DNA of 64,000 bases from Escherichia coli (GTDB lineage Bacteria; Pseudomonadota; Gammaproteobacteria; Enterobacterales; Enterobacteriaceae): the NCBI RefSeq assembly GCF_051903065.1, contig NZ_CP178438.1; one strand, given 5' to 3'. Shown here piece after piece: positions 55,680-64,000 of this stretch; the stretch's first letter is position 1, and each line of letters starts with the position of its first letter. A program made the position numbers and the translations under genes. The notes beneath the pieces are model-generated. The model did not search any database. It saw only the letters and a list, made by a program, of their open reading frames with translations, and was not told where the DNA came from.

Positions 55680-55969
55680 ATAAATCTCCATTTATCATTT
55701 ATGTCGTAAATATGTAATCCATGCAAAATACGTCATTTAAAGCTGGCGTTATCATAATTGGGAAATTGCGACTTTAATAAGTGGAAGTGTGAGCGGAACG
55801 ATCCATTTTATTAGGCATTTGTGCTGAAGAGGGAAAAGTACGGCATATTTATTACTATCATCAATAATGTGACCTGACTTATATTTTTATTATTTATATT
55901 ACTTTCAGCTTTCACTTCGACAAGAAGTACGCACAATGATTAATCAGATGAATGATGCGGAGTGTAACC

Positions 55970-56677
55970 ATGAAACCCGTCGTGCTGGTGGTGGATGATG
56001 ACACGGCTATCTGCGCACTGTTGCAGGACGTGTTAAGTGAACATGTCTTTACGGTTTCAGTCTGCCATACCGGACAGGAGGCCATATTGCGTATTGAGGG
56101 CGATCCTGACATTGCGCTGGTGGTGCTGGATATGATGCTACCCGATACCAACGGCCTGAGAGTATTGCAGCAAATCCAGAAACTGCGTCCGACATTGCCG
56201 GTGGTGATGTTGACCGGCATGGGCAGTGAGTCTGATGTGGTGGTCGGGCTGGAAATGGGCGCGGATGATTACATCTGCAAACCGTTCACCCCGCGGGTGG
56301 TGGTCGCACGACTGAAAGCGGTGTTGCGACGGGTTGGTGCGCTGGCGGTTAATGACGAGAAAAGCGCCGGGCTGTCATTCAATGGCTGGTATCTCGATAC
56401 CATGCGCTGCCAGTTGCACAATCCGCTTCAGCAACATGTCGAGTTAACTCAGGGCGAATATGGCTTGTTACTGGCTCTGGCGCAAAACGCGCGTCGGGTA
56501 TTGAGCCGCGAGCAGTTGCTGGCGTTCACCCACAGCGACAGCGTGGAGGTGTTTGATCGCACCATCGACGTATTAATCATGCGCTTACGACGCAAAATCG
56601 AACTCAACCCGCATCAGCCGATGTTGATTAAAACTCTGCGCGGTCTGGGGTATGTCTTCGCTGCCGACGTGCATTAA
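55970..56677 (+). CDS. OmpR/PhoB-family response regulator
   Basis: 235 aa; receiver domain (VVDDD...D at ~55 aa...K) plus winged-helix C-terminus (...TLRGLGYVF); GGAG RBS 8 nt upstream; not present at this position in K-12. Confidence 0.85.
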   Translation: MKPVVLVVDDDTAICALLQDVLSEHVFTVSVCHTGQEAILRIEGDPDIALVVLDMMLPDTNGLRVLQQIQKLRPTLPVVMLTGMGSESDVVVGLEMGADDYICKPFTPRVVVARLKAVLRRVGALAVNDEKSAGLSFNGWYLDTMRCQLHNPLQQHVELTQGEYGLLLALAQNARRVLSREQLLAFTHSDSVEVFDRTIDVLIMRLRRKIELNPHQPMLIKTLRGLGYVFAADVH

Positions 56678-57675
56678 TCCGACATTTCTGTTTGCAGCTC
56701 TTCCAGCGTTTTCGCCCCGTCGATGGCATTGGCGCATAACAGGCTTGCCCGCGCGCAGGCGTGTGCCAGTTTGATGCTCTCGGTAAGCGTCCAGCGTTCA
56801 TGGCAGCCATATAAAAATCCGGCACAAAATGCATCGCCCGCGCCGACGCTGCCGATAATTTCCCGTTGTTCTAACTTTTGCGAAGGGATCCACACGCCGC
56901 CCTGTTCTGGGGTCTCTCCCCACGCCCCTTCCGGGCAGTGGATCACCACCCGCTGGCGCACGCCCGCATCTAACAGTTCACGCGCGGCGGCAGCAATATG
57001 CGCGATATGCGGTTCGCCGTTGGGTAACCGAATTTCCAGCCCGCTAAACTCCCCGGCCTCCAGTTCGTTAATTACCAGATAATCCAGATGGCGCAACGCG
57101 GGCAGCACCAGCGGCTGATAACGCGGATCGCCCTTACGGGAGACCAGGTCGAGTGAGGTTTCAAAGCCAGTATCACGCATTTGCGCCAGCAGGCGTGCGC
57201 TACGGGTGCCGTAAACATCGTCCGGCATATCCAGGCTGTCGAGCAACAGTAAATAGCCGAGATGGAAAATCTTCATGGTGTTATCGAGCTGATCGAACGC
57301 CGGAAGATCCAAAAGTCTGTTTGCACCCGGCGAATGGAAAAACGTCCGCTGCCCGCTTGGGTCTGTCATCACCTGCGACATCGACGTCGGGGCAAAGGTA
57401 GTGCGCTGCACATGCTGACGATTGACGTGATATTGCTCAAGCATCGCCATGATGTAATCGCCGTCGCTGTCCTGACCGATTAGCCCAACCGCCTGTAACG
57501 GCAGCCCGGTGCGCATTTTCGCCAGCGTCAGCAGGACGTTAAGCGGCGCACCGCCGGTGGAGCGTTCGCTGTGGGTGATCTCCGCCAGCCAGCCGCGCTC
57601 TGGCCACTGGATAATCTGATGGACGTGGTCAACCAACATATTGCCTGCGGCGATAATCCCTTTACGCTCCATCAT
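56674..57675 (-). CDS. PfkB-family carbohydrate kinase
   Basis: 333 aa; C-terminal GAGDAFCAGFLYG ribokinase-family signature; start ATG overlaps the aldolase stop (ATGA). Confidence 0.8.
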   Translation of the reverse strand: MMERKGIIAAGNMLVDHVHQIIQWPERGWLAEITHSERSTGGAPLNVLLTLAKMRTGLPLQAVGLIGQDSDGDYIMAMLEQYHVNRQHVQRTTFAPTSMSQVMTDPSGQRTFFHSPGANRLLDLPAFDQLDNTMKIFHLGYLLLLDSLDMPDDVYGTRSARLLAQMRDTGFETSLDLVSRKGDPRYQPLVLPALRHLDYLVINELEAGEFSGLEIRLPNGEPHIAHIAAAARELLDAGVRQRVVIHCPEGAWGETPEQGGVWIPSQKLEQREIIGSVGAGDAFCAGFLYGCHERWTLTESIKLAHACARASLLCANAIDGAKTLEELQTEMSD

Positions 57676-61219: not shown

Positions 61220-62736
61220 GAGGTTACCGCCTGGGAATGGGCGTCGTTGACGCCAGTCGCTAAGGTCATAATGTTTTCCTGGGTGATGTTTTTGCCGTTT
61301 AACTCACCGGCAATGCTGCCTTCGCGCATCACATAGACGCGATCGCTCATTCCCACTATCTCCGGCAGTTCGCTGGAGATCATCAGGATCGCCACGCCCT
61401 TGCGCGCCATCTCGTTCATGATCCGGTAGATCTCGCTTTTGGCGCCAACGTCCACGCCGCGGGTGGGTTCATCGAGCAGTAAAATGCGCGGGCCAATCGC
61501 CACCCAGCGGGAGATCAACAGTTTTTGCTGATTGCCGCCGGAAAGCCCGCCCGCGCGTACCTGGGCGTGAGGCACGCGAATGTTGAGCAACTTAATGGCG
61601 TCATCGGAAATGGTTTGCGCTTTTTTGCGATTGAGCATTCCCCAGCGGGCATCGCGCTCCAGGGTTGCCATGGTGATGTTTTCGGCTGCTGCCATTTCAA
61701 GGAATAAGCCTTGTTCTTTGCGGTTTTCGGTGAGAAAACCAATGCCAAGATCGATGGCTTCGCGCGGGGAGTGGATCACCACCGGTTCACCATCGACTTC
61801 AATCATTCCGCCTGTCGCTTTCCGCACGCCGAAGATCAACTGCGCCAGTTCGGAACGTCCGGCACCCACCAGTCCGGCGAGGCCAACAATTTCGCCGGAA
61901 CGCACCAGCAGGCTACTCGGCTGGACTTTGCCGCCGTCGGTCAGGTGGTGAACATTCAGGCGGGCTTTACCGAGCGGGATATCGCGCTCTTTATTGAACA
62001 GATCGCTCAGTGGCCTGCCGACCATCATCCGCACCAGCTCCCCGGCATTGAGGTTATCGCGGGTCAGGCTGCCAACGTATTGCCCGTCGCGCAGCACGCT
62101 GACGCGATCGGAAAGCTCATACACTTCCGCCATGCGGTGGCTAATGTAGATAATCGCCATCCCTTCATCGCGCAGCCGCATAATCAGTTCAAACAGGCGG
62201 TGAGTTTCGCGGGAGGAGAGGGCGGCGGTGGGTTCGTCCATCACCAGAATGCGGCTGTTGCGATGTAGCGCGCGGGCGATTTCGACCTGCTGTTGCTCGG
62301 CAATGGTCAGTGTCATGACCTTATCGCTGGCGTTAAACTGCGCGCCGAGGCGGTCGATCACTCTTTGCGCCTGCACCAGCATCTCTTTACGCTGCACCAG
62401 CCCGCCGTGGGAAAGCTCGCTACCGAGGAAAATGTTCTCTGCCACCGTCAAATTGGGCGCCAGCTGCATCTCCTGATAAATCAGCGTAATACCGGCGCTT
62501 AAGGCATCTTTTGGCGTGCGAATGTGAAAGGGCTTGCCGTCTATGAGGATCTCGCCGCTGGTGGCGGTATACGCCCCCGCCAGCACCTTCATCAGCGTGC
62601 TTTTTCCCGCGCCGTTTTCCCCCATCAGGGCATGGATCTCGCCAGGGTAGACCGTCAAATCCACCCCTTTGAGTGCATAAAATTTGCCGAAGGCTTTGGC
62701 AATATTGCGCATCTCCAGAACCGGCGTGCTGTTCAT
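61216..62736 (-). CDS. Sugar ABC transporter ATP-binding protein (two fused ABC cassettes, RbsA-like)
   Basis: 506 aa from [11 protein letters not shown] (GGAG RBS upstream); Walker [10 protein letters not shown] and a second cassette; stop overlaps the permease start. Confidence 0.88.
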
Positions 62737-62849
62737 GGTGGACTCCTGCGAGGTTGTCGATATCAGCACTCCATCACAGGAAAGTAAATGCAAAATGTCA
62801 GAAGCCGTTCATATTTGTCATATTGCGATTTTTCTTCACGGAGCGTGAT

Positions 62850-64000
62850 ATGGCGCACCCCGGACGTCATTTTTTTGCCAGCGCGCGCGGGCGATTGCTG
62901 CTTTTGAATTTGCTGGTGGTGGCGGTGACGTTGATGGTCAGCGGCGTGGCGGTAATGGGCTTTCGTCATGCCAGCCAGATGCAGGAGCTGGTGCAGCAGC
63001 AAACGGTGGATGATATGACCGGCAGCCTGAATCTGGCGCGCGACACGGCAAACGTGGCAACGGCGGCGGTGCGATTGTCGCAGGTGGTGGGAGCGCTGGA
63101 ATATAAAGGCGAAGCCGAGCGGTTGCAGGAGACACAGCGGGCATTAAAAAGCTCGCTTGCACAACTGGCGAACGCGCCTTTAGCGCAGCAGGAAGCCGGG
63201 CTGGTGACGCGCATCATCACGCGTAGCAACGAACTGCAAACCAGCGTCGGTGGAATGCTGGAGCGCGGGCAAAGGCGGCATCTGGAGCGCAACGCGCTGT
63301 TAAGTTCGCTATATCAAAACTTAAGTTATCTGCGGCATCTGCAAAAAGTCACTCACGCGCAAGATGATATTTTGCTTAACGAGATGAACCGACTGATTGT
63401 TGCCGCTATTGCCACCCCCGCGCCGCAGGCGATTATTCATCAACTGGTCGGGGTAATGTCTGCGTTGCCGACCCACAGCGATACGCCATTGGTTAATACG
63501 TTACTCAATGATTTCAATGATGAAATGCGTAAACTCGCGCCGCTTTCTGCCGCTCTGGAGCAAAGCGATCTGGCAATCAGCTGGTATATGTTTCACATCA
63601 AAGCGCTGGTGGCGATCCTCAATGGCGACATCAACCGTTACGCCGAACAGGTGGCGACGCTCTCCGGTCAGCGTGTGGCGCAAAGTTACCAGGATTTGCG
63701 CTCCGGCGAGAGGGTGATCATGATTTTCGCCCTGTTAGCGGTGGTGATCACCGCGTTTGCCGGCTGGTATATCTATCGCAACCTCGGCACTAACCTGACG
63801 GCGATTTCCCGCGCCATGAGCCGCCTGGCGCACGGCGAAGCGGACGTCACTTTTCCGGCGTTACAGCGGCGTGATGAGTTGGGTGAACTGGCGCGCGCCT
63901 TTAACGTTTTTGCCCGCAATACCGAGTCACTCGAACGAACCTCACGGCTGCTAAAAGAGAAGACCACGCAGATGGAGATTGCCCAAACTGAGCGGCAGGG
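62850..64000 (+). CDS. Sensor histidine kinase (3'-truncated by window end): TM1, ~250-aa periplasmic domain, TM2, HAMP
   Basis: Frame open from the ATG at 62850 (GGAG RBS) to the window end; absent from the ORF track because no stop is reached; hydrophobic segments at residues ~15-37 and ~290-312, then HAMP-like ...RDELGELARAFNVFARN. Confidence 0.75.
   Translation, partial: MAHPGRHFFASARGRLLLLNLLVVAVTLMVSGVAVMGFRHASQMQELVQQQTVDDMTGSLNLARDTANVATAAVRLSQVVGALEYKGEAERLQETQRALKSSLAQLANAPLAQQEAGLVTRIITRSNELQTSVGGMLERGQRRHLERNALLSSLYQNLSYLRHLQKVTHAQDDILLNEMNRLIVAAIATPAPQAIIHQLVGVMSALPTHSDTPLVNTLLNDFNDEMRKLAPLSAALEQSDLAISWYMFHIKALVAILNGDINRYAEQVATLSGQRVAQSYQDLRSGERVIMIFALLAVVITAFAGWYIYRNLGTNLTAISRAMSRLAHGEADVTFPALQRRDELGELARAFNVFARNTESLERTSRLLKEKTTQMEIAQTERQ

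Follow-up and report, generated by a model that had tools for sequence, protein, structure and literature searches.

The final part of a 64,000-nucleotide stretch of Escherichia coli DNA (contig NZ_CP178438.1 of assembly GCF_051903065.1; the whole stretch is called the window here) carries, next to yjcS, a block of eight intact genes: an OmpR-family regulator gene, a six-gene minus-strand operon and a divergent hybrid histidine kinase gene truncated by the window end. A sequence-only reading had taken it for an accessory island for sugar catabolism that replaces the allose genes and brings a two-component system of its own, a description that gene content and comparison with E. coli K-12 uphold. 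All of the features that this reading described are present where it had placed them, and its calls agree gene for gene with the list of open reading frames (ORFs) and with the RefSeq annotation of NZ_AP045789.1 (L001). The latter sequence, which differs from window positions 43000-64000 by 1 base, was used to read the complete kinase gene and the right-hand junction. The genes are named below after their counterparts in O-island 167 (OI167) of O157:H7 strain EDL933, where they are lmvR, lmuKAIZYX and lmvK (Yang et al., mBio 2023; PMC10128022).

yjcS, ending at 55679/55691: left neighbour of the block
55680..55838, no strand: K-12-colinear backbone upstream of yjcS, delimited by sliding a 12-mer along the spacer between yjcS and alsK of K-12
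55970..56677, plus strand: lmvR, OmpR/PhoB-family response regulator of 235 amino acids (aa), phospho-acceptor Asp54
56674..57675, minus strand: lmuK, PfkB/ribokinase-family sugar kinase, 333 aa
57672..58532, minus strand: lmuA, class II ketose-1,6-bisphosphate-type aldolase, 286 aa
58547..59230, minus strand: lmuI, cupin D-lyxose/D-mannose isomerase, 227 aa (Z5688 of EDL933)
59285..60226, minus strand: lmuZ, periplasmic sugar-binding protein of a ribose-type (CUT2-like) ABC transporter, 313 aa
60245..61219, minus strand: lmuY, ABC transporter permease, 324 aa
61216..62736, minus strand: lmuX, double-cassette ABC ATPase, 506 aa, with the ATG at 62736 as start in RefSeq
62850..64000, plus strand: lmvK, of which the first 383 of 753 codons lie within the window

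The block is very probably OI167, a self-regulated module for D-lyxose/D-mannose uptake and catabolism, and the system, comprising LmvK/LmvR and lmuKAIZYX, is already known (Yang et al., 2023; PMC10128022). Its DNA is 99.28% identical to OI167 of EDL933 over 8.1 kb, with a single 9-bp indel and the same gene order and orientation. At the protein level the two copies differ by 0-3 substitutions each, plus one 3-residue indel in LmvK: LmvR (WP_000805929.1) and LmuZ are identical, LmuK has one substitution (C247Y), LmuA two, LmuI three, LmuY two and LmuX three, and the part of LmvK within the window has one in addition to the indel. The 113-nt spacer between lmuX and lmvK shows no difference from that of EDL933, and all ORF lengths equal those of their EDL933 counterparts except for the 3-codon copy-number difference in lmvK. 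Every functional element tested matches EDL933; the allele in the window is intact and nearly identical, and its backbone is not of the O157 type. The sequence-only reading had held the system to be uncharacterised, a view superseded by published work on the operon structure, the transcription start site, the operator, the role of the transporter and isomerase and the fructokinase activity of LmuK (PMC10128022). With the island, its regulator, operator and inducers and the isomerase structure already in print, the locus carries little weight as a discovery; we found no follow-up literature on LmvR beyond Yang et al. (2023; PMC10128022).

Between yjcS and yjdP, K-12 carries alsK-alsE-alsC-alsA-alsB-alsR-rpiB. 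In the window, K-12 colinearity persists for ~159 nt upstream of yjcS, with 10-12 of 12 positions of the sliding 12-mer matching the K-12 yjcS-alsK spacer until ~55832 and a collapse thereafter, which places the left island junction at ~55838/55839. On the right, beyond the window, island-carrying genomes show K-12 homology restarting ~85 nt past the lmvK stop, just within yjdP; the comparison that placed this junction also returned many extra matches, from the repetitive yjdP region. Because homology resumes just inside yjdP, alsR and rpiB have been replaced along with the five als structural genes, and the island slot is the same as that of OI167 in EDL933. The comparison of O157:H7 and K-12 at the yjcS junction that had been proposed from the sequence thus yields a 99.28% match to OI167 and the replacement of als-rpiB.

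The shared chromosomal site, together with the distant homology of the ABC components to AlsA, AlsB and AlsC, might suggest that an als operon has here been rearranged or has diverged, or that it is decaying and the block is what is left of it. We give this explanation next to no probability, since the NCBIfam equivalog scores for the transporter fall far under their cut-offs (105 bits against 335 for AlsB, 233 against 396 for AlsC and 493 against 772 for AlsA), no island protein matches the NCBIfam AlsK (allose-kinase) or AlsE (epimerase) models, and neither rpiB nor alsR is in the locus by annotation and K-12 comparison. The same AlsB score bears out the earlier statement that the binding protein is not AlsB. 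No island ORF is interrupted, which rules out pseudogenes, frameshifts and decay. Two findings that would have undone the sequence-only reading, a rearranged als operon and frameshifted pseudogenes, were therefore both looked for and not encountered, by NCBIfam scores and by the intact ORFs, respectively.

Within the operon, overlapping stop and start codons (ATGA) occur at two of the five junctions (lmuA/lmuK and lmuX/lmuY), and the remaining three are spaced by 14-54 nt. The convergent lmvR and lmuK genes have stop codons that share a TTAA at 56674-56677, and there is no intergenic terminator between them. Unless transcripts of the lmu operon end within lmvR, they would read through it in antisense orientation. 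Within the operon, the lmuZ-lmuI spacer (59231-59284), which divides the transporter genes from the enzyme genes, contains a GC-rich inverted repeat, CCGGGCGGCGCAGCTGCCCGG; this repeat could form an mRNA-stabilising or attenuating hairpin that gives the two operon halves different levels.

To assess the distribution of the island, complete E. coli genomes were searched, and 410 of 5426 (~7.6%) carry it whole, always on the chromosome and always in a single copy; 11 further matches in this search were 54-nt matches to another ABC ATPase and were not counted as the island. About two thirds of a sample of 58 evenly spaced carriers are typical O157:H7-type genomes, and among the others are O55:H7, O145 and some ten isolates whose genomes measure 4.6-5.2 Mb and whose sources were poultry, pigs, cattle, a frog, waste and humans. 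In a published PCR survey all pathotypes other than enterohaemorrhagic E. coli (EHEC) were negative for the island (PMC10128022); the small-genome and non-O157 carriers indicate that carriage is broader than that survey suggests. The backbone around the island tells of its history within the species. The 2.9-kb left flank of the window (52900-55838) is 97.86% identical to EDL933 and 97.89% to K-12, and the right flank (L001 22113-25000) is 94.9% identical to EDL933. With the island itself at 99.28%, these values suggest that flanking recombination has probably carried it from one E. coli lineage to another.

Beyond E. coli, the full eight-gene block occurs in the same order in Citrobacter, Pseudescherichia, Leclercia, Enterobacter and Serratia at 69%-97% aa identity, with the transporter as its best-conserved part; conservation as a unit across genera fits a coherent metabolic module. 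The loci of Cedecea neteri (L011 4645-9679) and Acerihabitans arboris (L014 4737-9836) contain lmvR, lmvK, lmuZYX and lmuI and lack lmuK and lmuA, consistent with the published dispensability of these two genes on lyxose. The sensor domain of LmvK has homologues in Klebsiella, Salmonella and Pantoea as well.

This distribution bears on whether the island in the window strain is mainly a virulence regulator, as has been argued for EHEC. In EDL933, LmvR activates the locus of enterocyte effacement (LEE), which encodes type III secretion, and binds the ler promoter, and lmvK and lmvR aid colonisation in a way that lmuKAIZYX does not (PMC10128022); the LmvR sequence in the window is identical to that of EDL933. 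Nevertheless, we regard a mainly virulence-related role in this strain as quite improbable: the flanks are not O157-like (97.9% and 94.9%, with the island at 99.3%), genomes that match the window without difference belong to isolates of 4.8-4.9 Mb from meat and human faeces, a size that suggests non-EHEC strains, and the block is kept in genera that are not attaching-and-effacing pathogens. Conservation in such genera makes metabolism the likely ancestral role. The occurrence of the OI167 module outside EHEC tempers its 'EHEC-associated' label and likewise points to metabolism as what it originally served.

The single indel that separates the window from EDL933 lies in the part of lmvK that encodes the sensor domain:

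63507..63515, plus strand: 9-bp unit AATGATTTC (Asn-Asp-Phe), within 63507-63521 (lmvK codons ~220-224), single in the window and tandemly duplicated in EDL933

The form longer by 9 bp is found in 39 of the 58 sampled island carriers, including every sampled strain labelled O157:H7 except LSU61. The single form occurs in O55:H7, O145 and small-genome strains, in O157:H7 LSU61 and in the orthologues of other genera, and strain RM19259 has 18 bp more across the matched region of the island, which may be a third copy of the unit. Given that the single copy is shared by other genera and by O55:H7 and O145, the experimentally characterised LmvK allele of EDL933 is the derived one.

Regulation of the operon can be read against the published work at the level of individual positions:

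62809..62823, minus strand: LmvR operator, direct repeat ATATGA-caa-ATATGA in the lmuX promoter
62773..62801, minus strand: predicted lmuX promoter, -35 CTGACA at 62801-62796, 17-nt spacer, -10 TGTGAT at 62778-62773

In EDL933, the six lmu genes are co-transcribed, the lmuX transcription start site has been established, and DNase I footprinting and electrophoretic mobility shift assays demonstrated that LmvR binds ATATGA-N3-ATATGA directly, with a footprint on the lmuX promoter from -41 to -62 (PMC10128022). The repeat has a single match in the 64-kb window, with 0.15 expected by chance, and allowing up to one mismatch reveals no second operator in the window, for example upstream of lmvR. When positioned from the published footprint, the promoter read from the sequence would start lmuX transcription near 62764. 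A longer, TTG-initiated lmuX ORF extending to 62793 is probably not used, because the footprint implies a transcription start downstream of its start codon. A consensus scan for promoters and terminators returned sites no more frequently than in shuffled sequence and did not pick up the published promoter. Mannose and lyxose both induce lmvR and lmuKAIZYX in EDL933, and induction by mannose requires lmvK and lmvR (PMC10128022), so that the signal for this kinase and regulator pair, which the sequence-only reading had taken as not established, is in fact on record.

The residues of the phosphorelay are kept in identical local sequence, namely D54 of LmvR and H407 and D689 of LmvK (H410 and D692 in EDL933), and in EDL933 complementation with lmvK H410A or lmvR D54Q gave markedly less growth than with the wild-type alleles (PMC10128022). 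LmvR is closest among NCBIfam models to OmpR (2e-56) and VirG (6.5e-53), all under the equivalog cut-offs. The translation of lmvK begins with a first transmembrane segment (~aa 16-38), a periplasmic sensor domain of ~250 aa, a second transmembrane segment (~aa 288-310) and a HAMP domain; the DHp (His407), catalytic and receiver (Asp689) domains are encoded outside the window. On the full protein, Pfam identifies HAMP (309-358), HisKA (399-458), HATPase_c (501-616) and Response_reg (640-749), and finds no domain in residues 1-300. NCBIfam groups the kinase core with CckA- and VirA-like kinases, the VirA-like model NF010411, one of the top matches of LmvK, covering residues 376-750 (kinase and receiver) only, at 216.7 bits against a cut-off of 647 (4.7e-64). 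Pfam detects no Hpt domain in LmvK, nor is there one in eleven orthologues; LmvK and all eleven end just after the receiver domain. A C-terminal Hpt was considered for the orthologues that are ~100 aa longer (L010-L014; ~850 aa against 753) and rejected, as these proteins share the same end point. Their extra length must consequently be internal. As PAS_7 (PF12860) is precomputed for several LmvK homologues, a PAS domain inserted between HAMP and DHp probably accounts for it.

A PDB sequence search with the N-terminal 383 aa of LmvK gave no match at E <= 1. We therefore rely on an AlphaFold model of the sensor built with 18 orthologues, which is all-helical with a mean pLDDT of 68 (75-93 in the periplasmic core). 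Its best meaningful Foldseek matches, to be read with that mean pLDDT of 68 in mind, are TorS sensor domains (3I9Y, with E ~2e-3, an rmsd of 4.4 Å and a target TM-score of 0.71; also the TorS-TorT complex 3O1H), and the helical bimodular domains of PilJ and McpS come next. As the E-values are marginal (~2e-3), the modelled resemblance to TorS may serve as a fold-level lead and not as a family assignment.

VirA transfers phosphate directly to VirG and reads the sugar-binding protein ChvE, and TorS reads TorT. By analogy, LmvK might sense sugar through the binding protein LmuZ, an idea for which the modelled TorS-like sensor fold, the resemblance to VirA/VirG and the co-conservation of the binding-protein gene in the locus all speak, and which we nonetheless consider unlikely. 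Helical bimodular domains such as that of McpS bind small ligands themselves, and mouse colonisation is affected by deletion of lmvK and of lmvR and unaffected by deletion of lmuKAIZYX (PMC10128022), which implies that LmvK signals without need for LmuZ, at least for whatever signal acts in mice. The published LmvK/LmvR model includes an 'unknown Hpt' (PMC10128022). The analogy would make direct transfer in the manner of VirA and VirG, with the receiver as a modulator, an equally economical scheme. A more speculative combination is that LmvK may read sugar-loaded LmuZ through its putatively TorS-like domain and pass phosphate from His407 straight to LmvR, with the receiver only modulating and the 'unknown Hpt' non-existent, while LmuK and LmuA would serve another ketose; we offer it tentatively, as a whole more likely wrong than right by a wide measure.

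Among the enzymes, LmuI is the most securely assigned. Its NCBIfam score of 439 bits exceeds the cut-off of 350 for the equivalog of Gram-negative D-lyxose/D-mannose isomerases (NF051472), and it matches the structures of Z5688 (3KMH/3MPB) over its full length at E 5.6e-160. Experiments on the near-identical EDL933 copy have shown its isomerase activities. The sequence-only reading had called it a homologue of an O157:H7 enzyme, which is correct as to relationship and understated as to degree, the two being the same gene with three substitutions. LmuXYZ is a ribose-type (RbsABC-like, CUT2) transporter with strong NCBIfam matches to the AraG, XylG, RbsA, RbsC and RbsB families, none at the equivalog cut-off: LmuX resembles AraG, XylG and RbsA, LmuY resembles RbsC (271 bits) and LmuZ resembles RbsB, with several PDB matches annotated as CUT2 binding proteins. 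LmuZ is ~90% identical to PDB 4RWE, the structure of an uncharacterised 'sugar-binding transport protein' and presumably a Yersinia pestis structural-genomics target. An orthologue structure is thus at hand for ligand docking or soaking with LmuZ. The transporter is ~60% identical to a Herbaspirillum mannose transporter (PMC10128022).

The kinase and aldolase are more ambiguous. LmuK has weak PfkB-family matches in NCBIfam and the PDB, to sulfofructose kinase, ribokinases, fructokinases and YdjH (3H49). LmuA passes the NCBIfam 'ketose 1,6-bisphosphate aldolase' equivalog (NF005284; 577 bits, cut-off 406), and its best PDB matches are class II fructose-bisphosphate (FBP) aldolases (E 4e-62), with KbaY (3e-56) and YdjI (6OFU; 1e-54) modestly weaker and AgaY comparable to KbaY. 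In K-12, the PfkB kinase of the YdjH/YdjI pair phosphorylates a ketose at C1 and the class II aldolase cleaves the monophosphate. Given the near-equal distances of LmuA to these enzymes, homology cannot separate a bisphosphate route (fructose, fructose 6-phosphate, FBP) from a ketose-1-phosphate route. The LmuK protein of EDL933 has fructokinase activity (PMC10128022).

Combining these data with the published genetics, the module would operate as follows. LmvK, a membrane hybrid kinase, would respond to the sugar and autophosphorylate at His407 (His410 of EDL933), and the signal would pass to Asp54 of LmvR, possibly by direct phosphotransfer. LmvR would then bind ATATGA-N3-ATATGA beside the lmuX -35 element and activate the lmuXYZIAK transcript. 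LmuXYZ would import the aldose, and LmuI would convert D-lyxose to D-xylulose and D-mannose to D-fructose; LmuK would phosphorylate fructose, and LmuA would presumably cleave the resulting ketose phosphate or bisphosphate. Xylulose would enter metabolism by the ordinary xylulokinase route, through the host XylB, as suggested by the dispensability of lmuK and lmuA on lyxose. In EDL933, growth on lyxose is impaired by deletion of lmvR, lmvK, lmuI or lmuZYX, and lmuK and lmuA are dispensable; growth on mannose by way of the operon is seen only in a manA mutant overexpressing lmvR (PMC10128022). A ketose kinase followed by an aldolase, the route proposed from the sequence, is also the model of Fig. 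3A in PMC10128022, and the published genetics support it only partly, since neither gene is needed on lyxose.

Several observations weigh against assigning the island to lyxose and mannose. On mannose the published contribution to growth is weak, as deletion of the operon has no effect unless manA is deleted and lmvR overexpressed, and the Km of LmuI for mannose is high, being quoted as 19.8 mM (PMC10128022). Growth on lyxose does not need lmuK or lmuA (PMC10128022), and the Cedecea and Acerihabitans loci lack both genes, so any physiological role of the kinase/aldolase branch is putative. Since lyxose seldom occurs naturally, the true substrate could be another compound. Finally, the experimental evidence comes from EDL933, whereas the window strain is known here from its sequence, and its LmvK sensor differs by 3 residues from the allele that was tested.

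The true substrate could accordingly be a sugar other than mannose or lyxose, with LmuK and LmuA forming a ketose-1-phosphate route like that of YdjH/YdjI, which comes near to what the sequence-only reading had proposed. The poor mannose affinity of LmuI and the small contribution of the operon to mannose growth (PMC10128022) are in line with this, as are the near-equal distances of LmuA to YdjI (6OFU, E 1e-54) and to the tagatose-bisphosphate aldolases KbaY/AgaY, FBP aldolases being only modestly nearer (4e-62), the presence of YdjH (3H49) among the weak PDB matches of LmuK, and the conservation of the block in plant- and soil-associated Enterobacterales. We still think it the unlikelier explanation, with perhaps an outside chance of being right: mannose and lyxose both induce the operon via LmvK/LmvR, growth on lyxose needs lmuI and lmuZYX, LmuK phosphorylates fructose and the transporter resembles a known mannose transporter (~60% identity to that of Herbaspirillum; PMC10128022), and LmuA passes the 'ketose 1,6-bisphosphate aldolase' equivalog. 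A lyxose/mannose module remains our preferred interpretation of the island.

The base composition of the island (~56% GC) does not stand out from that of the phn flank (~60%) and is thus uninformative on origin. At its other end, from position 1 to ~11080, the window contains prophage tail genes together with an integrase, immediately ahead of dusA. Named from the annotation of a 99.8% identical genome, these include tape measure and baseplate genes, frameshifted tail-fibre remnants, an invertase-type recombinase, a DinI-like gene and a tyrosine integrase.

Of the systems with which the locus can be compared, OI167 of EDL933 is the closest, sharing the insertion site, the order and orientation of the eight genes, LmvR, LmuZ and the promoter/operator spacer. 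It differs in having the 9-bp lmvK repeat twice (once in the window), in 1-3 substitutions in five proteins and in a flanking backbone that belongs to another E. coli lineage than that of the window. The D-lyxose isomerase Z5688 (3KMH, 3MPB) equals LmuI except for V138I, T153S and T177A (window residue first). The alsRBACEK-rpiB genes of K-12 likewise occupy the yjcS-yjdP slot and encode a ribose-type ABC sugar transporter; however, their enzymes are AlsE, AlsK and RpiB instead of a cupin isomerase, a class II aldolase and a PfkB kinase, and their regulation is by the RpiR-type repressor AlsR instead of a two-component system. YdjH/YdjI have the same pairing of kinase and aldolase families as LmuK/LmuA, and both turn up among the PDB matches of these proteins, but the similarity is distant, and LmuK has been demonstrated to use fructose.

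For the sensory system, the TorS sensor domain is the best meaningful structural match, at a marginal E-value, of the all-helical periplasmic domain modelled for LmvK, with undetectable sequence similarity, and TorS carries its own Hpt domain, whereas LmvK is without one. VirA/VirG and ChvE of Agrobacterium resemble LmvK/LmvR in combining a hybrid kinase that has a C-terminal receiver and no Hpt with an OmpR-family partner and a sugar signal, while the score of LmvK against the VirA model is far under the cut-off and reflects the kinase and receiver domains only.

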